A stretch of 60,392 bases of DNA, taken from the NCBI GenBank assembly GCA_039028975.1, contig JBCCHB010000104.1:1-60392 (forward strand), given 5' to 3'. The notes under the pieces were generated by a model. The model ran no database searches, was not told the origin of the DNA, and was given only the letters and a program-made list of their open reading frames with translations. This document shows positions 3,689-22,241 of the stretch, piece after piece; position 1 is the stretch's first letter, and each line of letters opens with the position of its first letter. A program made the position numbers and the translations under genes. Origin of the DNA: Chloroflexota bacterium (GTDB taxonomy: Bacteria > Chloroflexota > Anaerolineae > Caldilineales > Caldilineaceae).

Positions 3689-4570
3689 TCACATTGGCCT
3701 GCTAACCACACCTATTGTGCTGAACACTTCTCTGAACCTTTCACTCTCTGTTCCAAGGTAAAAGAATACATTGCCATGCGTGGGGCTACGCTGCTGCTGG
3801 CCATTTTTATCGATGAAACGAATGCGATGGTGAGTAGTGCAGGAGATATAGGTACTTGCCAGCTTCATATACCATGTGGCTGCAACGGCAGGCCGGACCA
3901 GAATGACTGCCTGGGTGATGTTGCCTGCCTCATATTCCTGGATGGCCTTGCCTGTGAAAGCTGCGGCTAATCCTGCCCCGAAAGGCGGGTTGAGCCAAAG
4001 ATTTCCTTGCCAGGGTTGCTCCAACCCATTATCCTTGATGCCATACCACTGTTTGGCCCGTATCCATTGCTGGGCTACTTCATTAGAGGCAGGGTCAAGG
4101 GAGATACGCCCCATGACTTGTCTGGCCATCTCGATATATTCGGATGGTGTATACCATTCATCACTTACCGAGCTACATTTGGCCTCATGGGGTTTACGTT
4201 TTCTGGTTTCCAGCCATGCTATCTCCCGCTTGATTTTCTTCAGCTCCCGTCCATTGTCAATTAACCGTTGGAACAGTTCGATTTCAGCATCTTTCAGATA
4301 GCGGCTCTTACAGCCATTTGCAAAGGGTGTACGGCTCCGGAGTTTGCCATAACGTCCTTTTCCTTTGGCGGTCCCTCCTGGTTTTGAATATTCGATCCAA
4401 CAATCCTGTAATATGCCCTCTTGCTGGAGCTGTTCCTGTTTGCGTTTGAGTGAAGCAAGACTACGCTGAGGCATAACAACTTTCGGTGGGCAGGATTCGG
4501 GGGCAAAACAGCAATGAGGCTCTTTTCTACTCTCCTTTGTGTCACATGGCAAGCCGTCACCCGAATGCAA
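3689..4570 (-). CDS. Phage-type DNA N6-adenine methyltransferase (Dam_phage-like). Probable true start is Met at ~4474.
   Basis: 'DEWYTPSEYIEMARQVMGRISLDPASNE' then 'NLWLNPPFG', i.e. the W.TP ... LDPA ... NPPF arrangement of phage Dam methylases. Confidence 0.7.
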   Translation of the reverse strand: MHSGDGLPCDTKESRKEPHCCFAPESCPPKVVMPQRSLASLKRKQEQLQQEGILQDCWIEYSKPGGTAKGKGRYGKLRSRTPFANGCKSRYLKDAEIELFQRLIDNGRELKKIKREIAWLETRKRKPHEAKCSSVSDEWYTPSEYIEMARQVMGRISLDPASNEVAQQWIRAKQWYGIKDNGLEQPWQGNLWLNPPFGAGLAAAFTGKAIQEYEAGNITQAVILVRPAVAATWYMKLASTYISCTTHHRIRFIDKNGQQQRSPTHGNVFFYLGTESERFREVFSTIGVVSRPM

Positions 4571-5011: not shown

Positions 5012-5890
5012 ATGCCTTCTTCCCCTTCATGGAATCAATATAGCAAGGACTTCATCAACATCCTTGAAGGATTCCGGTATCAGCACGGTATCCGAGAAGT
5101 GTTTTCCGACTGGGTTGAGGTTGCAGCCTGTGCCATCCACCAGGAACCGTATCATTTGGGGCTGGTGATACGGGATGAAACCTTTGATATCGTTGAAGCG
5201 CAATATATGGAGGCAGTGAAGAAGTATAACAAGGAGGAATTGAATGCTTTCGCCAATCTACTTGCGATCACGAAAATGGCGCTTGGTGAGGGCTATGGTG
5301 ATTTTCTTGGGAGAACGTATATGCAGCTTGAAATCAGTAACGACCGCAGCGGTGAATTCTTTACACCTTATCCAGTGTCCCTGATGATGGCCAGAATGAC
5401 CCTGGCGGATGTAGCTGAACAACTTCAGAAGAAGTCTTTTATCACTGTATCCGAACCAGCTTCTGGTGCAGGTGGGATGCTGATCGCACTGGCAGAGGTA
5501 CTTCAGGAGAAGGGATACCAACCAAGTGAAGCCATGTTCTTTGAGGCAGTTGATGTAAGCAAACTCTGCGCCGATATGACCTACCTACAGACAGGAATTC
5601 TTGGACTGTCCGGCATGGTGAGGCATGGCAATACGCTGACGATGGAGTCATGGAGCCACCGCTTTACACCGATATGTCGTATTTTCCCATACCGTACCAA
5701 CAGATTCCTGGACAGCCTTTATACTGATCCGGCGGAAATACCCGAACCAGAACAACCACCTGTTGCCGCCAACGACAATGAATTAGAGCAAGAAACCAGC
5801 ACACCCACACCAGAGGCTACTGCTGAAGCCGAGGTACTTGATCGCCTCTCTGACCTCGATCAATCTTACGTCCAGGGAAGATTGTTCTAG
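5012..5890 (+). CDS. N6-DNA-methylase-like protein (HsdM/gamma-class AdoMet-binding core) lacking a recognisable NPPY/F/W catalytic loop. Degenerate or non-catalytic.
   Basis: 'GEFFTPYPVSLMMARM' then 'VSEPASGAGGMLIALAE' (FxTP ... EPAxGxGG). No NPP[YFW] follows, and there are no adjacent hsdS/hsdR. Confidence 0.5.
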   Translation: MPSSPSWNQYSKDFINILEGFRYQHGIREVFSDWVEVAACAIHQEPYHLGLVIRDETFDIVEAQYMEAVKKYNKEELNAFANLLAITKMALGEGYGDFLGRTYMQLEISNDRSGEFFTPYPVSLMMARMTLADVAEQLQKKSFITVSEPASGAGGMLIALAEVLQEKGYQPSEAMFFEAVDVSKLCADMTYLQTGILGLSGMVRHGNTLTMESWSHRFTPICRIFPYRTNRFLDSLYTDPAEIPEPEQPPVAANDNELEQETSTPTPEATAEAEVLDRLSDLDQSYVQGRLF

Positions 5891-6302: not shown

Positions 6303-6542
6303 ATGACTGAATCAACCACCAACAAACCCGTATTCACTTTCCGACTTGGTACCCTTTCCGCCACCATCTGGCAGAACCGGACGAAGAAAGGAAGCTATTA
6401 CCGTACAGAAATGGTTCGGAATTACAGAGATACGGAAGGTGTCTGGCAAACAAGTAGCAGCTTCGGCCATGAGGAGTTGCTGAATGTGGCCAAACTAGCC
6501 GAACGTGCTGAAGACTATATCGCCCGTCTTACGCAATCCTAA
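6303..6542 (+). CDS. Hypothetical 79-aa protein.
   Basis: ORF only. Sits directly upstream of the methyltransferase gene. Confidence 0.3.
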   Translation: MTESTTNKPVFTFRLGTLSATIWQNRTKKGSYYRTEMVRNYRDTEGVWQTSSSFGHEELLNVAKLAERAEDYIARLTQS

Positions 6543-6612
6543 CAAGGCACATTTTCACAGGGCTGCACCAAAACGCAGCCCTTACTATTACACTTACTTC
6601 ACGGAGTATCTC

Positions 6613-7269
6613 ATGTTTTCGATTCACAGCTTTCTGAACCAACTCATTCACGATAATTGCATCCAGGTGATGCAGACCATGCCAAGTCACAGCATCGACC
6701 TGATCGTCACCGATCCACCCTATCTGGTGAATTACCGCTCCCGCGATGGCCGCACCATTGCCGGGGACCAGGATGATGCATGGCTGCATCCAGCCTTTGC
6801 CGAGATGTATCGGGTACTTACTCCCAACAGCCTGTGTATTTCCTTCTATGGCTGGAACAAGGTAGACCGCTTCATGGATGCATGGCGCACTGCCGGATTC
6901 ATGCCCGTAGGTCACTTCACTTGGAGCAAGCCTTATGCCTCTAGTCAAGGCTTCACCCAGGCCAGACATGAAAATGCCTATCTACTCGCTAAGGGTAACC
7001 CCAGAAAACCTGCCCATCCACCCAGAGATGTTCTGCCCTGGCACTATACCGGAAACCGACTGCACCCGACGCAAAAGCCTGTCTCTGCACTCACACCGCT
7101 GATTGAGGCATACTCTACCGAGGGTGCCATCATTCTCGATCCCTTCGCTGGTTCCGGCACTACTGCCGTTGCTGCTAGACAGTTACACCGTGCCTTTATC
7201 GGTATAGAGATGGACCGCACCTATTTCGTTAAGGCCAAAGACAGGCTGGCAAAGCATTCCGCCTCGTAA
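6613..7269 (+). CDS. DNA methyltransferase (N4-cytosine/N6-adenine, PF01555-like). The ORF track begins at 6505; the first ATG is at 6613.
   Basis: 'IDLIVTDPPYLVNY' (DPPY motif IV) then 'ILDPFAGSGTTAVAA' (AdoMet motif I), the beta-class motif order. Confidence 0.85.
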   Translation: MFSIHSFLNQLIHDNCIQVMQTMPSHSIDLIVTDPPYLVNYRSRDGRTIAGDQDDAWLHPAFAEMYRVLTPNSLCISFYGWNKVDRFMDAWRTAGFMPVGHFTWSKPYASSQGFTQARHENAYLLAKGNPRKPAHPPRDVLPWHYTGNRLHPTQKPVSALTPLIEAYSTEGAIILDPFAGSGTTAVAARQLHRAFIGIEMDRTYFVKAKDRLAKHSAS

Positions 7270-7399: not shown

Positions 7400-7699
7400 A
7401 TGGAAACAGAACATGCAACGCAGCCAACAAAGAATCAACGCATCGCTACCCGCGTGACCAGTGAGCATAAATTACTGTTTGAGCAAGCCGCTCTCCTGAA
7501 GGGGATATCCCTGACGGACTTTATGGTGAGTTCTGCCTATGATGCAGCGGTCAAAGTGCTCATGGATAGTCAGGCTGTGTTAGAGGTGGGGGCAAAAGAC
7601 AGCCATGCTTTGATTGAGCGCTTACTGCATCCCCGCCAGCCCTCTGAATTGCCTGAACTTCAGAAAGCGGCTGCACAGAATCCATGTATCAAGTCATAG
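7400..7699 (+). CDS. DUF1778 (TacA-like RHH) antitoxin with no intact GNAT toxin partner.
   Basis: 'RIATRVTSEHKLLFEQAALLKGISLTDFMVSSAYDAAVKVLMD' matches the DUF1778 family. The downstream ORF (7614-7814) is not GNAT-like. Confidence 0.65.
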   Translation: METEHATQPTKNQRIATRVTSEHKLLFEQAALLKGISLTDFMVSSAYDAAVKVLMDSQAVLEVGAKDSHALIERLLHPRQPSELPELQKAAAQNPCIKS

Positions 7700-7864: not shown

Positions 7865-8617
7865 ATGGATATGAGTCAATGCAAAAGTGATACGGACATA
7901 GTTATTTTTGTCTACGGTGCAATGTTATCATTACGTTCTCAATTACAGGCCAAGATTGTTTTAAAAGTCATTTCGGTCGTTTCATTTGTCATCGCATTTA
8001 TTTGGTTCGTTGTCGAACCAGGTTTCGAGCCGATCCTGGCATTTCTGGGAGGAACCGCAGCCCTAATATCCTCTTTTGTTGATTCTGGTCAACAAAGTAA
8101 CGACGATGAAACAAGCTCTAATTTGGTGAATCAAACGGTTCGGCATGACAAACAGTATGATTATTTGACATCATCGCTACACAAAAAACCAGTCGAAAGA
8201 CCCAAAATCAAGTATAGGCCCACTCAAGATAAGGTAGTGGAAGATAAGCTTTACGATGCATTCATATCGCTAAGAAACCTATCATTCATTATTCTAATAT
8301 TCTCTTTATTCATGGTATGCGTTTTGACAGCAATGATGATTGCCCGGCTAGATGGCATACCGCTGATTGGATTCATCTGGCTAGTGACCATATTTAGCAT
8401 CTTTATATTCATGATGAAGACTCTTTATCGACGAATATCTGTTACGGGTTATTATGGCAAGATAAAGCTTGTTGACACACGAGAAACCATAAAACATTCA
8501 CTACAAAAACGAACCTGGGGAAACGTATTCACTAACATTTATATGGAGGCAGTCATTTCCTTTTTGCTCAAAACTAAGAAAAGGGAAGCTGATAAGCTTA
8601 TGGGCTGGTTTGGATAG
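7865..8617 (+). CDS. Polytopic (about 4-TM) membrane protein of unknown function, translationally coupled to the downstream peptidase.
   Basis: Hydrophobic segments 'IVLKVISVVSFVIAFIWFVV', 'ILAFLGGTAALISSFV', 'LSFIILIFSLFMVCVLTAMMIA', 'IPLIGFIWLVTIFSIFIFMM'. AT-rich codon usage. Stop at 8615-8617, 37 nt before the next ATG. Confidence 0.6.
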   Translation: MDMSQCKSDTDIVIFVYGAMLSLRSQLQAKIVLKVISVVSFVIAFIWFVVEPGFEPILAFLGGTAALISSFVDSGQQSNDDETSSNLVNQTVRHDKQYDYLTSSLHKKPVERPKIKYRPTQDKVVEDKLYDAFISLRNLSFIILIFSLFMVCVLTAMMIARLDGIPLIGFIWLVTIFSIFIFMMKTLYRRISVTGYYGKIKLVDTRETIKHSLQKRTWGNVFTNIYMEAVISFLLKTKKREADKLMGWFG

Positions 8618-8654
8618 AGCCAGCAGTAGGCAGTTTGTTAGGGAGAATTGGATT

Positions 8655-10040
8655 ATGGACAGTTTCGGCAATCAAGAATTGTTATATTTTAATGGCATTA
8701 ATGGTTTTACTGGTGAATATGGATTACCACCCATGTCATACGAAGAATTTGGGGAATTTATACGAAATGAACGGCCACCTCAAAATTTGGGCGACCTTAA
8801 GTTGCGACGTCAGTTAATTGCCAAAGAGAACCTTTATACAAAGGAAGGGGTAGATCCTAAAAAATTATCAGAAGCAGGCTGGGGTATTATTTTTGCTCAT
8901 GACGGTGATCCAAAGATTAAGGAAGCCCTCACCCCCCTTCTTGACCTGCGTTCCCAACAGGCTGGACAATATTTCAAGATTTATGATGGGAACGATGGAT
9001 ACCGACCTAATGAAACAAAAACCAGATTTCTTGCTAGGCATGGAGGTGGCCCTGGCCCAGCAGATCCCGAAAAGGTTCCGTATTACCTGCTGATTGTCGG
9101 CACTCCAGAGGCTATACCCTATCAATTTCAATATTTATTGGATGTACAGTACGCTGTTGGCCGAATTAGTTTTGATACAGTACAAGAATATGAGAATTAT
9201 GCCAAGAGTGTAGTTGCTGCTGAAACAAATGGGATACGAGGTCCAGAACGTTGCTGTTTTTTTGGTACGTCCAACCAAGATGATCGAGCTACGAATTTCA
9301 GTGCAACTCACCTGGTTCAGCCTTTATACAAGGAATTTTCTGGAAATAATCCTACTTGGGAGTCTGAATCCTTCATAGGTACACGGGCTACCAAAACAAA
9401 GCTTAAAGAACTTCTTGGAGGAAAGCAGGCACCTGCCCTTTTGTTTACTGCTACTCACGGTATGGGATTCCCTAAAGAGCATTCTCTTCAGGCCAGCCAT
9501 CAAGGTGCTTTATTATGTCAAAATTGGCCAGGACCAAAAAAGTGGCAACAACCGATCCCACAAGATTTTTACTTTTCAGAAGATGATGTGATCAGTGATG
9601 CAAATATGCTTGGACTTATAATGTTTTGTTTTGCATGTTATTCGGCTGGTACCCCTCTCTATAATGATTTTGACCGAAATCAGAACGAGCCCATTGCGTC
9701 ATCTCCGTTTATTGCAGGTTTGCCAAAAAAAATTCTGGGGAATACAAGTGCTGCTTTAGCTTTTGTTGGTCACATAGAACGAGCTTGGTCATACTCATTT
9801 CTTTGGCCTGGTGTTGGCGAACACACTATTGTCTTTCAGGATGTATTGAAGCGCCTCATTGATGGTCATCCGATTGGATCGGCAATGGAGCCAATTAATC
9901 AACGTTATGCAGAACTTGCAACTGTCACAGATTATTTGAACTCCGAAGATATTGACGATAATATTGGCGTATGGACAGCAAAAAACGACTCGCGTAACTA
10001 TATTATCATCGGTGATCCTGCCGTGCGTGTATCTAGTTGA
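8655..10040 (+). CDS. Clan-CD (caspase/legumain/gingipain-like) cysteine peptidase homolog. The ORF track starts at a TTG at 8610; the ATG at 8655 has a GGGAGA RBS.
   Basis: Putative catalytic His in 'ALLFTATHGMGFP' and Cys in 'MFCFACYSAGTP', ~54 aa apart (HG ... AC.S.G, as in legumain 'DHG...EACESG'). N-terminal beta-strand-like 'YYLLIVGTPEAIP'. Confidence 0.55.
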   Translation: MDSFGNQELLYFNGINGFTGEYGLPPMSYEEFGEFIRNERPPQNLGDLKLRRQLIAKENLYTKEGVDPKKLSEAGWGIIFAHDGDPKIKEALTPLLDLRSQQAGQYFKIYDGNDGYRPNETKTRFLARHGGGPGPADPEKVPYYLLIVGTPEAIPYQFQYLLDVQYAVGRISFDTVQEYENYAKSVVAAETNGIRGPERCCFFGTSNQDDRATNFSATHLVQPLYKEFSGNNPTWESESFIGTRATKTKLKELLGGKQAPALLFTATHGMGFPKEHSLQASHQGALLCQNWPGPKKWQQPIPQDFYFSEDDVISDANMLGLIMFCFACYSAGTPLYNDFDRNQNEPIASSPFIAGLPKKILGNTSAALAFVGHIERAWSYSFLWPGVGEHTIVFQDVLKRLIDGHPIGSAMEPINQRYAELATVTDYLNSEDIDDNIGVWTAKNDSRNYIIIGDPAVRVSS

Positions 10041-10133: not shown

Positions 10134-10664
10134 CTAATTTGGCGCAATCAGATCTGTTACATTGGCAATTGCGCAATTTATGGCATCGCTAGGCTTCAAA
10201 GTAGGATCATGGCAGACCAAATTAGTTAATTCCTCAAATAGAAGCCTGACACCAACCATGTCAATAGGAAGGTGATATGCAAAAATCTGGGAAGCCCCCG
10301 TTTTTTTACGAATATCATCAATTTCAGAGCGAAAATGTAAATCATCGCCACAAGAATTCAAGATGATGAATTGCCCTTTGAAATTATCATGTTGTTCGTT
10401 TAAATCCTTAAGTATGCCCTCATTCAAGCCAGAATTGTGCCCAGCAACGAATACAGTGTTAACTGATGCTTGAGCTAAAGCTTCGATATTTGGGTAAGTC
10501 TCTATTTTTTTTTCTTGTGCATATTTTTCGATTTGTATCCCTGCTTGTATTTGTCTATCATCCAATCTGCGCAAATCTATCCATACTGCCATATTCCATT
10601 TACCATCGGCTCCCATTAGAGGTTGTTCATTAATTAAGTTTCGAATCGTATCTGTGAGGACCAT
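10134..10664 (-). CDS. Minimal (176-aa) CHAT/caspase-like domain protein.
   Basis: 'TVFVAGHNSGLNEG' (His-Gly) and 'QFIILNSCGDD' (Cys), spaced as a caspase-fold dyad. AGGAGA RBS 8 nt upstream of the ATG. Contains an A10 tract (10504-10513). Confidence 0.5.
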   Translation of the reverse strand: MVLTDTIRNLINEQPLMGADGKWNMAVWIDLRRLDDRQIQAGIQIEKYAQEKKIETYPNIEALAQASVNTVFVAGHNSGLNEGILKDLNEQHDNFKGQFIILNSCGDDLHFRSEIDDIRKKTGASQIFAYHLPIDMVGVRLLFEELTNLVCHDPTLKPSDAINCAIANVTDLIAPN

Positions 10665-10696
10665 TTCTGATTCTTCTCCTAATTGTGTTCACTGAC

Positions 10697-12667
10697 TCAA
10701 ATCATAGTCATACTTTTATCTAACAACATCGATATATACGAAAGCCCAGTCTGTAGCGCACGTAGATTATCTTTCTGAATATCAGTTAAATCGTCCCTTC
10801 CTAAAGTAGAATTTATTGCCTCATGGAGTAAGGGTGAAAAACCTTTACTGATTGCTTCGTCTGACTTAGCAAGCTCAATAAATTCATCAAGCACAATTTC
10901 TAGGGTCTCCAGCATCACCATCCCATCATATGCGAAAACGCCGCGGACTCCAGTGCTAGTAATGAACGAACTATCGAAGCGGCGTTGTTCATCATGATCC
11001 ACTGCTAGTATTGCTACATAACATTCCTGAAGGTGTTCAACACTAGTCGCTATAGGCAAGGATGATCTAGAATTTGTATCGAAGGGGGGGATAAAGTCAC
11101 TTTGTTGATTTGCTGAAATATAAAGAGCATTGGAACATCCATCCTCATCGAATTTATTTTGTGTAACAATCCCATTATTATCAGCTAGAGACTTTAGCTG
11201 CGCCAGGCGTTCTGAACTTGCAGGGCCGAATGAATCTTCATCAATTATCAGCGTCAGATTCCAGTTCCCATTGTTGTCCAATACAGGACGTTGGCCCTCA
11301 AGATTAGCTAGTGCAATTATTGGATCATCATCTAGTGAAACATTTTTGACGCCTCGAGTTTTCGCAATCATAGCTAATCCATGCGCGATTCCACGTCGAA
11401 GTTCTCGCTCTGCCTTGTTCGATGTTAGCCCGGTAACGAAAACTAGATTTTCTTGTTTCTCGGAGAATAGAAATTCAAAAACATCTGTAAAGTCAGGAAA
11501 CTCATATTGTAATTCCAGGTTGTAAAGATGTTGTAGACAATAATCTCCGACCGCACATTTTATTTCGACATTTAGATCTGTTAGAGATATACCCTCAAAA
11601 ACCCTAAATTCTCGCCCACGTTGTACTAACAAATACCCATTTAACTCATCGACATAAATAGCGGGGTACCCCTTCATTGTCATGGCCGCAACGCCCAGTC
11701 GATTTCGCAGCCAGTAATCAATTGAAAACGATTTTCCCATAAATGCCCACATGCCATTTGCATTTGTCTTACCTATAGCATCAAGGAAGTTTAGTATTTG
11801 TTGAGCGCCTATATTATCATCGTTAGCGAAGAACGTCCGTCCAAATTCCGATACTGCATCAAATTCTACGTCAATAATTTCACCTTTTTTTGTATGCCAG
11901 AGCGTGAGTTTATCGCCCCACTCTGTTGTACCAGGTGTAACGTCAGTACCATTTTCCCATAATGCGTGGAAAAATTTTTCCTCTGAGCCAACTTCATAAT
12001 TTAATGCACGATTGTTGTAGCCAAATATGTCTAGGTCTGACAGATAGAGTTCTGGTAATGATTTTCTTTGTGTTGGTGTTAGGCTCAGAAGATTTAGAAG
12101 AAGAAATGTTTCTATTTCGTTCCCAGAAAGTTCTTGATAATTTGCTTGACCTCCCCCCCGTAGCTCAAGCAAATTATCAAGAGCTTCCAGGTCTCCAGAA
12201 CTTATACGGGGCCTAAGTAGCTCATACGCATGAGCTATATCTTCATCTACCCAAAAAGGTTGTGGGTAAGCGCTATTAGGTGAGAAAAAATCGTATTCAC
12301 TAATATCGTATTCGCTAATATACATGTCAACTAGCACTACTCTTTTGGTCGTATCATATCTTACACTGTTATCTAGTTGTGATTGTAAAAGTTGTTCCAA
12401 AGCCCTTGAGGTTCCAGTTCTTGCACTAAGGTTGACTAACTCTGGAGATAATCCATTAACCGTAAAAGAGCGACCACCATAGGTAATCATATTACCTGCT
12501 ACCGACCCTCCAACCACCCTAGTACCGGAAGATATTGTCCGTAAAATTTGTCGAATCAGGGAAGCTTGTTGGGTAGGCGATGCGTAAGCAGGTGCAAAAA
12601 AAATTACTGTCAAAATTAAGGTGATGCTAATTATTGTAATTCGTAGGAAATATCTCAACATTATCAC
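10697..12667 (-). CDS. Large secreted protein (656 aa) of unknown function with an N-terminal signal peptide. Operonic with the 176-aa CHAT-like gene.
   Basis: 'MIMLRYFLRITIISITLILTVIFFAPAYASPTQQ' (signal peptide, A-Y-A|S cleavage-like). 32-nt gap to the downstream gene. In-frame 15-bp tandem duplication (ISEYDISEYD) at 12291-12320. Confidence 0.6.
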   Translation of the reverse strand: MIMLRYFLRITIISITLILTVIFFAPAYASPTQQASLIRQILRTISSGTRVVGGSVAGNMITYGGRSFTVNGLSPELVNLSARTGTSRALEQLLQSQLDNSVRYDTTKRVVLVDMYISEYDISEYDFFSPNSAYPQPFWVDEDIAHAYELLRPRISSGDLEALDNLLELRGGGQANYQELSGNEIETFLLLNLLSLTPTQRKSLPELYLSDLDIFGYNNRALNYEVGSEEKFFHALWENGTDVTPGTTEWGDKLTLWHTKKGEIIDVEFDAVSEFGRTFFANDDNIGAQQILNFLDAIGKTNANGMWAFMGKSFSIDYWLRNRLGVAAMTMKGYPAIYVDELNGYLLVQRGREFRVFEGISLTDLNVEIKCAVGDYCLQHLYNLELQYEFPDFTDVFEFLFSEKQENLVFVTGLTSNKAERELRRGIAHGLAMIAKTRGVKNVSLDDDPIIALANLEGQRPVLDNNGNWNLTLIIDEDSFGPASSERLAQLKSLADNNGIVTQNKFDEDGCSNALYISANQQSDFIPPFDTNSRSSLPIATSVEHLQECYVAILAVDHDEQRRFDSSFITSTGVRGVFAYDGMVMLETLEIVLDEFIELAKSDEAISKGFSPLLHEAINSTLGRDDLTDIQKDNLRALQTGLSYISMLLDKSMTMI

Positions 12668-13629: not shown

Positions 13630-13896
13630 TCACCGCTGCCGCAAGTTTTCAACGATGCTGTCTATTTTGATGGTGTTCCAGTAGAGTACGGCGTTGGAAA
13701 CAAGGCTGAGACAACTGGCCTTGTTCATGATTTCTTCGTAATTTCCGGTCGTGAACTCTACCTGGTCTGCAAAGAAAATCCGCTGTGGTAATTTATGACG
13801 ATACTCTCCTTTGTTGAGCTGTAGCTGGACGGTTCGACGTAAATCCGGATCGGTGAGATAGCGCAGAATATATTCTGTTTTGATGATACGCCCCAA
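13630..13896 (-). pseudogene. Tn3-family transposase (TnpA) C-terminal fragment. Remnant only.
   Basis: 'GEYRHKLPQRIFFADQVEFTTGNYEEIMNKASCLSLVSNAVLYWNTIKI' matches the conserved C-terminal region of Tn3 TnpA. No upstream continuation of the frame. Confidence 0.75.
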
Positions 13897-14478: not shown

Positions 14479-14730
14479 TTGTATTGTTTCACTATGCGGT
14501 ATGACACCGAAAAATGGCAGGCCAAACGGTGGGAAACGGAGCGCCGTTACTACGTGGCCGAACTGCGTCAGGATCTGTTTGGTGGCTGGTGTATTGAACG
14601 GCATTGGGGAGCACGTTACAGTCGGCAGGGAAATAGTCTGACCATCTCTGCAAACGACTACGTTCATGCGCTTGAGCTGCTTGAGGAGGTTGCCAAACGG
14701 AGACAGCTTCGGGGGTACGCCCATGCCTGA
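14479..14730 (+). CDS. WGR-domain protein.
   Basis: 'RRYYVAELRQDLFGGWCIERHWGARYSRQGNSL' matches the WGR-domain pattern (RyY.....DLFG.w.v...WGRiG..Gq). Confidence 0.6.
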   Translation: MYCFTMRYDTEKWQAKRWETERRYYVAELRQDLFGGWCIERHWGARYSRQGNSLTISANDYVHALELLEEVAKRRQLRGYAHA

Positions 14731-15301
14731 TGTCCTCCATGACCAGGAAGGCCACCGCAAATACCTCAATAAGGCCGAGCGGGAAGCTTTCTTAAAAGCA
14801 GCACTCGATGAAGAACGGGAACGGCGCACTTTCTGCGAGATGTTACATTACAGCGGTGCGCGGATTTCTGAAGTGCTGGCGATCACCGCAGGCCGCATCG
14901 ATCTCGACACGCATAGCGTCACGCTGGAAAGCCTCAAAAAGCGGCAGCGGGGTATTTTCCGCATTGTTCCCCTGCCTTCTTCTTTCGTCGAACGGCTCGA
15001 TTTGGTACATGGGATTAAACAGGCACAGAAAAAGGGTAAAGAGGAGGTGTGGCTTTGGACATGCAGCCGTACCACCGCATGGCGTATTGCCAAGGGTGTG
15101 ATGCAGCGGGCCGGAGTGATAAGCAGCGCCGCCACACCCAAAGGACTACGGCACGGTTTCGGTGTCGCAGGCGTTACCCATGAAGTGCCGCTCAATATGG
15201 TGCAGAAATGGCTCGGACATACCGACATCGCCACCACCGCCATCTACGCCAATGCCATTGGTGAAGAAGAACGGCAAATTGCACAGAGAATGTGGGAGTG
15301 A
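14666..15301 (+). CDS. Small tyrosine recombinase/integrase (catalytic domain only). Likely start is Met at ~14723.
   Basis: Catalytic-residue context 'ARISEVLAI' (Arg), 'HGLRHGFGV' (His-x-x-Arg), 'IATTAIYANA' (Tyr nucleophile). Confidence 0.75.
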   Translation: MRLSCLRRLPNGDSFGGTPMPDVLHDQEGHRKYLNKAEREAFLKAALDEERERRTFCEMLHYSGARISEVLAITAGRIDLDTHSVTLESLKKRQRGIFRIVPLPSSFVERLDLVHGIKQAQKKGKEEVWLWTCSRTTAWRIAKGVMQRAGVISSAATPKGLRHGFGVAGVTHEVPLNMVQKWLGHTDIATTAIYANAIGEEERQIAQRMWE

Positions 15302-15874: not shown

Positions 15875-16636
15875 ATGTATACACAGCATCCAGTGTTCAT
15901 GCCCCCTGAAAACGATAGCGCTCGGATTTGGCGATATTTAGATTTCACAAAACTAGTGTCACTATTTGAATCACAATCGCTCTTCTTCGCTCGTACAGAC
16001 AAACTCGGTGATCCCTTTGAGGGATCTTGGCCACAAAAAAACTTGCGCGTGGTAAGAGATAACCTTCCCGATATTCCTGTTGACAAGCATGAAATCTATT
16101 TTATGGACGTGGCCAACATTAGCAATCTCTTGAAAAAGTGGGCAGAGTGCAATGCGATCAGTTGTTGGCATCTAAATGAGCAAGAATCCGCGGCAATGTG
16201 GAGACTATATCTTAAGAGTGATGAGGGAATTGCAATTCAATCGACATTTGCACGTCTTCGTGATTCGATAACCGATGACAGAACCGTTTACATTGGAACA
16301 GTCCGCTACATTGATTATGAGACAGATTGGTTTGATCCAATTAACCTTTACGAGGCTCTGCTACACAAAAGAAAAAGCTTTGAACATGAGAGAGAATTGA
16401 GGGCTGTTGTCACAGCAATATCAACCGGTCCAGAGGAAAGAGAAATCGACTTTAGCAAGTCAGAAATTACTGATGGAATCAAGATCGCTGTGAATGTTAA
16501 TATGCTGATTGAAAATATTTACGTAGCTCCTGATGCGCCAACATGGTTTACGGATCTCGTGAGTTCTATTGTCAACAGGTACAAATACAAGTTCAATGTC
16601 CAACAATCGAAGTTGTCTGAGAGACCAATCTACTAA
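15875..16636 (+). CDS. DUF2971-family protein (abortive-infection-associated family).
   Basis: 'IWRYLDFTKLVSLFESQSLFFARTDKLGDPFEG' matches the DUF2971 N-terminal signature (YrY.s...l..l....l.fs....fNDPfE). Confidence 0.55.
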   Translation: MYTQHPVFMPPENDSARIWRYLDFTKLVSLFESQSLFFARTDKLGDPFEGSWPQKNLRVVRDNLPDIPVDKHEIYFMDVANISNLLKKWAECNAISCWHLNEQESAAMWRLYLKSDEGIAIQSTFARLRDSITDDRTVYIGTVRYIDYETDWFDPINLYEALLHKRKSFEHERELRAVVTAISTGPEEREIDFSKSEITDGIKIAVNVNMLIENIYVAPDAPTWFTDLVSSIVNRYKYKFNVQQSKLSERPIY

Positions 16637-16737: not shown

Positions 16738-18351
16738 CTAACCTAATACAAACCTAATATCGCTGGGATTTACATTTTCAGATGATATTAGTCTAACTTG
16801 CTCTGAGCCACCAAGGTTCTCCATTAATAACTCCGCTTGGGCAAGAATGTATGCTTCGTTCATATTCCGTCCTGAAGCAATAGACTCGTAAAAAGCAGAA
16901 GCAAAGGCAATGGCAGACACATTTTCTATCTCACCCTCAATACCAATAACACAGTCAACATGACACGATATCTGCGTTGCTTGAGTATGTGAGTAACAAG
17001 AATTTAGTACTACACAACGGATATCGCCCTTAAATCCTCTAAAAATTTCGCTGAGTGTATGAGGCTCTACCCGATGATAAGTTCCTGTGTTATTTTCAAA
17101 GAGTAATGCCCCATTCTTTACGCCATGTCCACTAAAGTGAACTATAGTGGGTCTATAGTAAAGTAAATACCGTAAGACGTCTCTCGCTTTAGTCGCCCAT
17201 ATTTGCTGAATCGTAAATTGTTGTCCATAAATAGCCCGATTCAATGATTCAAAAATTTCTCTATGCTCTTTTCCGAGCTGAAGCCAAACCCTATCAGAGG
17301 GTTCGGCAGCTAAACAAAGTATTACATTTTTTTCAATATGATTGTCGTTTGATTTAGGCTGAAACTGTTGTTCTATAGTGATCGAATAAGACTCTAATTC
17401 AGGATGTTTATTCCCCAATTCATACACGAGTTGATGTGCGTCCTTCTCCGAAAGTTCTAACGTAACACGCACACTACCGGAGCTAATATTTTGCAAGAAA
17501 ACTCTCTCTGAATCTATGTCGGCAGCAGCACAAATAGCTGCGATTAAATCATCGAGATGTTTAGGTGTATAGGTAGCTATATCATTTGGGATGGATATGG
17601 TAATCTGACCACGTGATCGGTCTTTGCGTAAACGGTCGATAGCATCTTGCAAGAATTCAACATCAGCCGAGTTTTCCCGCTTGCTAAACATGTCTTGGGT
17701 ATTGTGACGACTGTTGTTAGTATCCACCTCATTAGTCAGAAGAGTATACCCAAGTTCTTGCCGTTCTCTGGTACCTATCGGGTCCCAACCCCACTCCTCT
17801 TCTAATATAGTCCATACCTCTTCAAAAAACTCAGGATTCTGGCTTAATCGCAGAGTATCCAAGAGATACATTATAAAGGAAAAGCGACGCGTGGCGCGAG
17901 GTTTGGCTATACCTTGCTCCCATGCTGCAACTGTTTTTCGAGCCTGTCGGCCGGTTAGACCTAACATTTTTGCTGCTTCAGCTTGTGATAGCCCAACCCC
18001 TTCGCGTAGCTGACACAGAATTTGAAGACGAGACGTAGTGGAACGTTGATTGCGATCTCTTGAGGAAAAATCTTCATTAAGTGCTTTTAGAGTTGGGTTC
18101 CCTGGATTATAGTCATGTGCACTTTGGATCAATTCATAAACTCGATCTGTCGCAACAGACCATTCGATGAGGCTAGATACGATTGATGCCAGATTGCTAC
18201 CAGATGCAATCCTATCCAGGGATACGTTCATCTCTACTTGAACCATCATGCGCAAAGCATCTTTGGTTCGGTAGCCATCCAGGAGCGCTTCCTTAATCTG
18301 TTTTATTTGAGAACCGTCCGGCTTCATATGGCTCTCTGTCTTACCTTCCAC
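16738..18351 (-). CDS. Effector-associated-domain (EAD-like) + HTH + C-terminal CHAT/caspase-like domain protein.
   Basis: N-terminus 'IKQIKEALLDGYRTKDALRMMVQVEMNVSLDRIASGSNLASIVSSLIEWS...NPGNPTL' is EAD-like. Central 'LSQAEAAKMLGLTGRQARKTVAAWEQG' is an HTH. C-terminal 'TIVHFSGHGVKNGALLF' (His) and 'IRCVVLNSCYSH' (Cys) form a caspase-fold dyad. Confidence 0.6.
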   Translation of the reverse strand: MEGKTESHMKPDGSQIKQIKEALLDGYRTKDALRMMVQVEMNVSLDRIASGSNLASIVSSLIEWSVATDRVYELIQSAHDYNPGNPTLKALNEDFSSRDRNQRSTTSRLQILCQLREGVGLSQAEAAKMLGLTGRQARKTVAAWEQGIAKPRATRRFSFIMYLLDTLRLSQNPEFFEEVWTILEEEWGWDPIGTRERQELGYTLLTNEVDTNNSRHNTQDMFSKRENSADVEFLQDAIDRLRKDRSRGQITISIPNDIATYTPKHLDDLIAAICAAADIDSERVFLQNISSGSVRVTLELSEKDAHQLVYELGNKHPELESYSITIEQQFQPKSNDNHIEKNVILCLAAEPSDRVWLQLGKEHREIFESLNRAIYGQQFTIQQIWATKARDVLRYLLYYRPTIVHFSGHGVKNGALLFENNTGTYHRVEPHTLSEIFRGFKGDIRCVVLNSCYSHTQATQISCHVDCVIGIEGEIENVSAIAFASAFYESIASGRNMNEAYILAQAELLMENLGGSEQVRLISSENVNPSDIRFVLG

Positions 18352-18696: not shown

Positions 18697-19080
18697 TTAT
18701 CGGATCGTTTTTACTTGACACAGACTCAGGGTCTCCCAAGATCTATCGGCAGTGACGGCGATAAACTTGCGGCTGCAAGCGACGGCAAGGCAAGCACGAT
18801 CGCCAAAGGATAAACCAGCCTGTTTCGTCATTGGGCGCAATCGTCCTGCTTCCCAGGATAACTGACGATCAAAATCAACGATATTTCCGATACCGATCAC
18901 AGAAATTATCGTCGTCACATCCGCTTCGCTCACGCCTTTCTCCAAGAGTTTTGCAATGACTTCGGAAAGGTTGACTGAGCATATGACAGATGCAGGTATC
19001 AGTGGGGTGACTGCATCACTTCCTGTCTCATCATTGAGTAGCGCAAGCACTGCGGATGCATCCAGAATAAAATCAATCAT
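18697..19080 (-). CDS. vapC: VapC PIN-domain toxin.
   Basis: 'MIDFILDASAVLALLNDE' (PIN N-terminal Asp) and 'LSFGDRACLAVA'. 8-nt overlap with the upstream antitoxin. Confidence 0.8.
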   Translation of the reverse strand: MIDFILDASAVLALLNDETGSDAVTPLIPASVICSVNLSEVIAKLLEKGVSEADVTTIISVIGIGNIVDFDRQLSWEAGRLRPMTKQAGLSFGDRACLAVACSRKFIAVTADRSWETLSLCQVKTIR

Positions 19081-21191: not shown

Positions 21192-22241
21192 TTACTGATG
21201 CCTTCTCTTTTCATGGACTTTACGACAGAAGCCGATAAATGCTGCATCAGGATTACGGGGCGGCTCCGTCATCCATTCCCGCCACTCCTCCTCCAAATTA
21301 TAAATATCGCGCCCTGGGGCGGCTAAACGGGCTTTGTGATATGTATCCGGCTTCAAAGGAGGGCAGAAGGGACCAGTTTGTTTATCCTCCTCTATGCACA
21401 ATGGCATTGTGTTTCTATTTCTAAACTCCACCTGATCCGCCTGCTCATAAAAGATGACTGTGTAATCTGGTAAATGATCGTGTGCGGCCAGATGCTTTAT
21501 AGATCGGCGAAATTCTTTCAAGGAAGCTTTAGAACCAGATTTTTTATGCATTACCTCCAAAGATACAGACCACCTCTCTTGTTGGCCGCAGTGTTTTCTG
21601 GCTAATTCATAGGTTCTTCGCTCGATGGGCTTCCGTAAGCGGAAATAGTCACGATGTAGAGTCAATACTTCGCGTTCGCGTATTGCATCAAAGACCCAAT
21701 CTGATAACACAACCTCACAGTAGAGTAAGCGCCCATCTAGGCCGAATTTTCGGGCTACCGTTGCTGCTTCAATCAGGCCAAATGCTTCCCATTTCTCCTC
21801 GTCACCTCGGTGTATATTGGTGCGGATACGTGTTCCATCCAAACGATCTAAAGCCTCGCATAGAGCCTGATAATCCTTGCCAGCCGTTCCCCGATTGGTA
21901 AATTTCAGTAACTCATGTGCATTGAGACGTACTCGCTTACCAACTGGTTTATCTTCCCTAAGTCTTGCGATAACCTGAGAAATCGCATATATCAAGATAT
22001 CTTTATCGTATATGGTCGCTAATCCCTTCACACTGGGAACAACCTCTAACCAATTGCCATTATGTTCGTATCGCCGGATATTAGTCTCTGGCTTTTTCGA
22101 CAAAGAATAAAATGGGTGCTCCATTTGCGGGATAATGTCTTTCAGTACCGCATCTGCAACATCGCAGATAAACAGATCGTGCTGCGGATGACGATCCGGT
22201 AATAGTTGGTCGTCGTTGTTGTTCGGGGTTTCACACACCAT
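21192..22241 (-). CDS. repA: Plasmid replication initiator protein RepA (RPA family, PF10134-like).
   Basis: 'MEHPFYSLSKKPETNIRRYEHNGNWLEV', 'GLATIYDKDILIYAISQV' and 'LLKFTNRGTAGKDYQALCEALDRLDGTRIRTNI' match conserved RPA-family blocks. Iterons lie immediately upstream and overlap the start codon. Confidence 0.8.
   Translation of the reverse strand: MVCETPNNNDDQLLPDRHPQHDLFICDVADAVLKDIIPQMEHPFYSLSKKPETNIRRYEHNGNWLEVVPSVKGLATIYDKDILIYAISQVIARLREDKPVGKRVRLNAHELLKFTNRGTAGKDYQALCEALDRLDGTRIRTNIHRGDEEKWEAFGLIEAATVARKFGLDGRLLYCEVVLSDWVFDAIREREVLTLHRDYFRLRKPIERRTYELARKHCGQQERWSVSLEVMHKKSGSKASLKEFRRSIKHLAAHDHLPDYTVIFYEQADQVEFRNRNTMPLCIEEDKQTGPFCPPLKPDTYHKARLAAPGRDIYNLEEEWREWMTEPPRNPDAAFIGFCRKVHEKRRHQ

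Follow-up and report, generated by a model that had tools for sequence, protein, structure and literature searches.

A 60,392-nt stretch of a Chloroflexota contig with plasmid-like gene content (JBCCHB010000104.1, from a metagenome-assembled genome; the whole stretch is called the window here) carries a pair of adjacent minus-strand genes that form a previously undescribed, very rare family with a caspase (clan CD) fold. At the family level this finding is new and solid. The small gene encodes a protein of 176 amino acids (aa) with a putative His/Cys catalytic dyad, and the large gene encodes a predicted exported protein of 654 aa, part of which is a paralogue of the small protein without the dyad. 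It is probable on balance that the two are an enzyme/pseudoenzyme pair, with the small protein as a catalytic subunit that would work with its dead paralogue in the large protein. The pair and the parts of the large protein, named from predictions, are as follows.

10134..10664, minus strand: small gene, 176 aa, single-lobe caspase-fold protein without a signal peptide
10665..10696, minus strand: intergenic spacer of 32 nt with an AGGAG ribosome-binding site, read from the sequence
10697..12661, minus strand: large gene, 654 aa from the ATG at 12661 (alternative GTG at 12667, 656 aa)
12581..12661, minus strand: predicted Sec-type signal peptide, aa 1-27 (MLRYFLR, hydrophobic core, AYA before S), from a hydropathy scan
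11954..12580, minus strand: orphan N-terminal region, aa 28-236, which replaces the ~400-aa DUF1598-like N-domain of canonical large proteins
11309..11716, minus strand: first alpha/beta lobe, aa 316-451, of a separase/gingipain/CHAT-like unit
10766..11308, minus strand: second lobe, aa 452-632, catalytically dead caspase-fold domain and paralogue of the 176-aa protein
10730..10741, minus strand: conserved SYIS motif (aa 641-644), a short beta-strand at the C-terminal end of the model (model residues 404-406)

The small protein has the motifs VAGHNSG (aa 73-79) and ILNSCGD (aa 101-107), which the original prediction had read as a dyad spaced as in the caspase fold. They contain a putative catalytic His76 (codon 10437-10439) and Cys105 (codon 10350-10352), both on the minus strand. 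The reading is borne out by the homologues. Both residues are invariant across 12 small proteins, where Gly-His is among the few invariant columns, and the small proteins are 30-40% identical to the window protein in a six-sequence alignment. The segments VFVAGH76 and FIILNSC105 correspond to predicted strands at 70-75 and 98-103, which are consecutive, hydrophobic and each end in a dyad residue. As far as the sequence goes, His followed by Cys on consecutive strand ends is the clan CD arrangement. The general pattern in clan CD includes the dipeptides His-Gly and Ala-Cys. The residue after His is Asn in most small proteins, Gly in the P0010 group and His in one, and the residue before Cys is Ser, Ala, Thr, Ile or Val. 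A minimal caspase-type fold, with about five strands in one lobe, is very probable for the 176-aa protein. This assignment rests mainly on homology to the large domain, because the small protein's own model is poor and Foldseek is uninformative. The small proteins have no N-terminal leader by hydropathy. A resemblance of aa 2-39 (window 10550-10661) to an adhesin Ig-like repeat hairpin (PDB 6xi3) is probably due to chance, because its summed E of 1e-5 combines four weak, almost identical matches to the repeat, each of which has E>30.

Over its whole length, the 176-aa protein can be aligned to aa 452-632 of the large protein, with a Smith-Waterman score of 97 compared to 58.6±9.1 for shuffled sequences (0/300 reach it), and a MAFFT alignment agrees with the pairing of the small protein and the large C-terminal region. 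In tblastn, a foreign small protein matches the C-terminus of the window large protein (6e-6), and a foreign large protein matches the window small gene (5e-5). Profile-profile comparison of the small and large families with hhalign results in a probability of 99.4% and an E of 5e-22 over 167 columns. The most conserved element common to both classes is the motif NLxxxxPxxxxxGxW, which lies in aa 2-39 of the small protein and precedes the first strand. The His position is Arg in the large proteins and Asn518 in the window protein, while the Cys position is Ile, Ala, Val or Thr (Val554 in the window protein). A Gly/Asp-Gln-Glu/Asp sequence is conserved after the Cys position in most large proteins, but not in that of the window. 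Since both dyad residues are replaced in the large proteins and kept in the small ones, the small protein looks like an enzyme and the second lobe of the large protein looks like its pseudoenzyme. An origin of the small gene as an orphan recombination cassette derived from the 3' end of the large gene was rejected, because the identity is only ~20% and each class keeps its own residues at the catalytic positions.

The large protein had been described as having an unknown fold, which no longer applies. A confident model of aa 316-646 matches only clan CD proteases, and by this model the region is a two-lobed separase/gingipain/CHAT-like unit. The leading matches are Lys-gingipain (12.2), separase (11.8), RgpB (11.8), the Csx29 TPR-CHAT protein (11.5), human and yeast separase (11.0 and 10.8) and SAVED-CHAT (8.8). 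These are followed by CED-3, caspases 1, 3, 4, 8 and 9, Dronc, cFLIP and clostripain, with MALT1 and legumain lower down. The gingipain, separase and CHAT alignments span 224-279 residues, so both lobes are matched, and the homology to the small protein falls on the second lobe. The alpha/beta/alpha sandwich with a caspase-type sheet that characterizes clan CD is present in the model. Of the seven other large proteins, five have the C-terminal motif as (S/N/D)YIS and P0005 has SHIS; the motif is missing in P0011 and P0013. Cleavage or docking might involve the SYIS strand or the linker at aa 237-315, which is modelled with low confidence; the role of the motif is inferred only.

Signal peptides were predicted by eye and with a hydropathy scan; a hydrophobic N-terminal leader is visible in all large proteins, and the scan flagged six of eight. 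The window protein has a basic stretch and then a hydrophobic segment followed by AYA and SP, in agreement with the signal peptide ending A-Y-A that had been proposed for it. The orphan region that follows (aa 28-236) has no homologue in the exhaustive search described below, and the profile of the canonical N-domain gives no match to it either. Its coding statistics are normal and it has zero in-frame stops. The coding sequence of this region also contains an inverted repeat (12123-12191) with 30-nt arms that are 87% complementary and 9 nt apart.

Both open reading frames are real genes and not chance reading frames, because stops are absent in frame, GC content is periodic by codon position and homologues are found in other genomes. 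The coding frames contain no stops, compared to 13-46 in each other frame of each segment tested. All coding segments tested have their highest GC content at the first codon position (GC1), and the orphan N-terminal 236 codons of the large gene follow the order GC1>GC2>GC3. The frames lie where they were originally placed, at 10134-10664 (176 aa) and 10697-12667 (656 aa from the GTG) with a 32-nt gap. The ATG at 12661 is the likelier start of the large gene. It is preceded by AAGGAAG, and gene calling on a separately assembled version of this DNA picked the same start. The NCBI annotation starts the large protein at Met58 (597 aa) and excludes the signal peptide, in contrast to the N-terminal hydrophobic leader in every large homologue. 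The large and small genes are probably co-transcribed; promoter and terminator scans gave background level only.

The family is very small. An exhaustive HMMER search of 1.84 billion representative proteins resulted in 14 matches, including the two queries, which split into large proteins of 729-869 aa and small proteins of 131-194 aa. The large homologues P0003, P0004, P0005, P0007, P0011, P0012 and P0013 align to aa ~237/317-654 of the window protein. With each protein as query, a word-indexed search of 5.8 billion proteins recovered just the query itself, and this kind of search with a 14-sequence profile had the same outcome. When genomic and metagenomic contigs were scanned with the large-family profile, nothing closer than distant relatives of the canonical N-domain turned up, and the family itself was not found. 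Neither pair protein matches Pfam, NCBIfam or PADLOC, and neither profile nor sequence searches of the PDB had a significant hit. The profile searches named as a check in the original prediction were also run and came back empty. There is no match at E≤1 to Pfam CHAT (PF12770) for either pair protein, nor a match in the five small homologues tested, and Peptidase_C14 and Peptidase_C25 are not matched by either pair protein; C25 is matched only by the neighbouring gene at 8610-10040. The known anti-phage defence models of PADLOC-DB 2.0 have no component match for either pair protein. With hhalign, the match to CHAT sequences covers only the Cys strand (21-22 columns, E 0.025-0.03). Since the sequence link is limited to this local match, the pair was not filed in the CHAT family. 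The proposal of a small stand-alone CHAT-like domain therefore stands in part, with a minimal caspase-type fold being very probable and the protein falling outside Pfam CHAT and any curated family. Searches of the literature on DUF6759, DUF1598 and PF24391 found nothing, and the matches for HD-CE were not relevant.

The two genes are consistently linked. When homologues of the large protein were checked for co-occurrence, the large gene was followed by the small gene in all eight loci that are readable on both sides (L007, L008, L009, L012, L014/L015, L016, L018 and the window). The spacing is -17 to +32 nt including the window (-17 to +22 nt in six related loci) and 159 nt in L007. The genes usually found upstream encode an HD-CE protein and then a lipoprotein, so that the pair is the 3' half of a four-gene operon. 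The first gene encodes a predicted cytoplasmic protein with no N-terminal leader by hydropathy; its Pfam HD-CE match exceeds or comes close to the threshold in four loci, and TPRs are often present as well. The second gene encodes a lipoprotein with a lipobox and DUF6759/DUF4397 beta-sandwich repeats. The N-terminal part of the first gene differs between loci: a PNP_UDP_1 phosphorylase domain is fused to it in L012 (1-1956), and L008 (6618-8663) shows a weak match to the NACHT N-terminal helical domain (NNH2). Variability of this kind is typical of conflict-system effectors (PMC7159879). In L011 (3-1718) a full-length CHAT protein (E 4e-63) is located just upstream of the HD-CE gene.

The canonical large proteins begin with a ~400-aa N-domain that has sub-threshold similarity to DUF1598. 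Distant relatives of this domain are found at the N-terminus of RHS-repeat proteins. In L002 (9-8018), one such relative heads a 1162-aa RHS-repeat protein, and the genes after it encode a 262-aa CHAT protein, a NACHT NTPase and a protein with a PIN domain; the CHAT protein is 39% identical to the CHAT domain encoded elsewhere in the window. In L007 (5855-7009) an internal deletion in the large gene (384 aa) joins the N-domain directly to the final part of the C-terminal lobe, and the small gene that follows is intact. Remnants of the HD-CE gene, the lipoprotein gene and the N-domain were searched for in the window and none were found. Judged from the sequence, the window holds a partial copy of the operon, with the last two genes only and the N-domain of the large protein swapped for orphan sequence.

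The surroundings of the pair in the window contain several further genes of interest.

7865-8617, plus strand: multi-pass membrane protein, 250 aa, with an 8-nt overlap with the C25-like gene
8610-10040, plus strand: leaderless C25-like peptidase, 476 aa (Pfam Peptidase_C25, 31 bits vs a cut-off of 23, E 2e-7)
13630-13896, minus strand: Tn3-family DDE transposase fragment, 88 aa, ~1 kb upstream of the large gene
14666-15301, plus strand: tyrosine recombinase, close to the Tn3 remnant
15875-16636, plus strand: 253-aa protein, PADLOC candidate defence family PDC-S31 (E 3e-22), weakly DUF2971
16738-18351, minus strand: 537-aa protein with EAD1 (E 6e-16), helix-turn-helix and CHAT (E 6e-8)
240-2570, 3689-4570, 5012-5890, 6505-7269, 7400-7699, 18697-19080 and 21192-22241: conflict-rich genes

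The stop of the plus-strand gene at 8610-10040 is 93 nt from the end of the small gene; therefore, the two modules converge tail to tail as originally noted, and the peptidase passes the Pfam C25 threshold. Its motifs ATHGMG and FACYSAG are apparently intact. Neither this protein nor the membrane protein has a PADLOC or NCBIfam match. The EAD1/CHAT protein has weak PADLOC chat/SAVED_CHAT matches and is another caspase-fold gene within 6 kb of the pair. The conflict-rich set includes an NB-ARC/TPR STAND protein, Dam-like, N6_Mtase and N6_N4_Mtase proteins, a TacA-like antitoxin, a PIN toxin and a RepA replication initiator (E 4e-82). The plasmid-like content of the contig consists of RepA, three DNA methylases, toxin-antitoxin genes, the tyrosine recombinase and the Tn3 transposase remnant. 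GC content is 40-41% over the stretch at 8-14 kb, compared to ~49% for most of the remaining contig. The low GC content suggests that this stretch is acquired DNA.

In the enzyme/pseudoenzyme reading, the small protein would be the catalytic cysteine-protease subunit and would dock on, or be controlled by, the dead paralogous lobe of the large protein, which may act as an exported or surface scaffold. Possible analogues are caspase-8 with cFLIP, and separase, in which the active lobe is packed on a pseudo-protease lobe. A cell-surface processing or conflict/defence function is possible. Several points weigh against this reading. Most small proteins have His-Asn instead of the usual His-Gly. 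The structure prediction that had been proposed for the 176-aa protein is poor, with a predicted local distance difference test (pLDDT) score of 58, and Foldseek with this model against the PDB gives nothing significant and only generic flavodoxin-like, PurE and receiver folds; the fold is supported through the homologous large domain instead. The predictions also put the large protein outside the cytoplasm and leave the small protein leaderless, which disfavours a simple complex, since the small protein would have to be co-exported or act before export. Protease activity, interaction and cleavage are all predictions from sequence and models. In addition, with a Tn3 remnant next to it and without half of the canonical operon, the window copy may not be functional. 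A bolder form of the enzyme/pseudoenzyme reading is a split separase-like protease, in which the small protein would be the only active lobe, supplied in trans and active only when docked on its exported, dead, two-lobed partner. Together with the HD-CE protein and the lipoprotein, it would constitute a new envelope-spanning signalling or conflict system of Chloroflexota; this form is speculative and unlikely to be correct as a whole.

Other explanations account for part of the same evidence. The large secreted protein might be a substrate or pro-protein that is cut by the small peptidase, for example in the linker at aa 237-315 or near the SYIS strand. The conserved, tightly coupled gene order, the intact dyad of the small protein and the presence of the low-confidence linker and conserved C-terminal motif fit a substrate, and cleavage would be compatible with docking. 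However, a substrate role leaves the full conserved dead protease lobe unexplained, is topologically awkward given the predicted difference in compartment, and depends on a candidate cleavage site, so it is doubtful as the main function. It is less likely still that the small protein is not a protease at all, and is instead either a five-stranded flavodoxin-like module that uses the conserved His and Cys to bind a metal or ligand, or a protein that competitively mimics the large C-terminal lobe. The character of the non-significant Foldseek matches, the lack of a sequence link to CHAT/caspase profiles past the Cys strand and the prevalence of His-Asn point in this direction. A separate question is whether the copy in the window is decaying or non-functional, as a fragment of the four-gene operon that a degraded transposon carries along as passenger DNA. 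The missing HD-CE and lipoprotein genes, the replaced N-domain, the Tn3 remnant at 13630-13896 with its nearby recombinase and low-GC surroundings, and the internal deletion in the related L007 gene are consistent with decay. On the other hand, both reading frames are intact with normal coding periodicity, and the copy retains its signal peptide, its two lobes and the His/Cys pair; decay is therefore a tentative possibility that merits somewhat more weight than the substrate role. The original prediction had also grouped the pair with the convergent membrane and C25-like genes (7865-10040) as four consecutive genes. They are adjacent, share the low-GC stretch and place caspase-fold proteins on both sides. 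However, the transcription units are convergent and separate, and tblastn found no relative of the membrane and C25-like proteins in the fetched comparison loci, which cover every locus with the pair other than L018. At the related loci, the genes upstream of the pair are instead those for the HD-CE protein and the lipoprotein. A single functional module made of these four genes is thus very improbable.

Caspase-fold proteases, among them caspases, separase, CHAT proteases and gingipains, have central roles in cell death, immunity and virulence, and for many of them control comes from pairing with a dead paralogue. The pair would be a natural case of an active lobe and dead lobes encoded as separate, obligately linked genes, and the family would set a lower size limit for the caspase fold; no characterised caspase-fold peptidase is known to be as small. 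In the poorly studied Chloroflexota, it also reveals a four-gene operon that is uncharacterised. The immediate impact is limited because the family is very rare and is without a known phenotype.

The closest known systems share the fold and differ in how the lobes are distributed. CHAT proteases (PF12770, including Csx29 TPR-CHAT of type III-E CRISPR and SAVED-CHAT) have the same fold and dyad as predicted for the pair. However, a CHAT domain is roughly 290 aa, whereas the small protein has a single lobe in 150-190 aa, the active and dead lobes of the pair are on separate polypeptides, and the profile-profile link (E ~0.03) is confined to the Cys strand noted above. Separase (C50) is a eukaryotic, cytoplasmic or nuclear protein controlled by securin, with both lobes in one chain; in the pair, the two-lobed chain appears wholly dead, and a small protein of its own would form the active lobe. 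The gingipains Kgp and RgpB (C25) are active enzymes with His and Cys in one chain, and the pair proteins have no Pfam C25 match. Caspase-8 with cFLIP(L) and the cyanobacterial pseudo-orthocaspases combine an enzyme with a dead paralogue, as is proposed here. They have no sequence relationship to the pair, whose heterodimerisation is inferred only and whose dead partner is predicted to be exported. The features that set the pair apart are the tiny putatively active protein, the division of active and dead lobes between two linked genes, the predicted export of the dead partner and an operon of four genes of its own.
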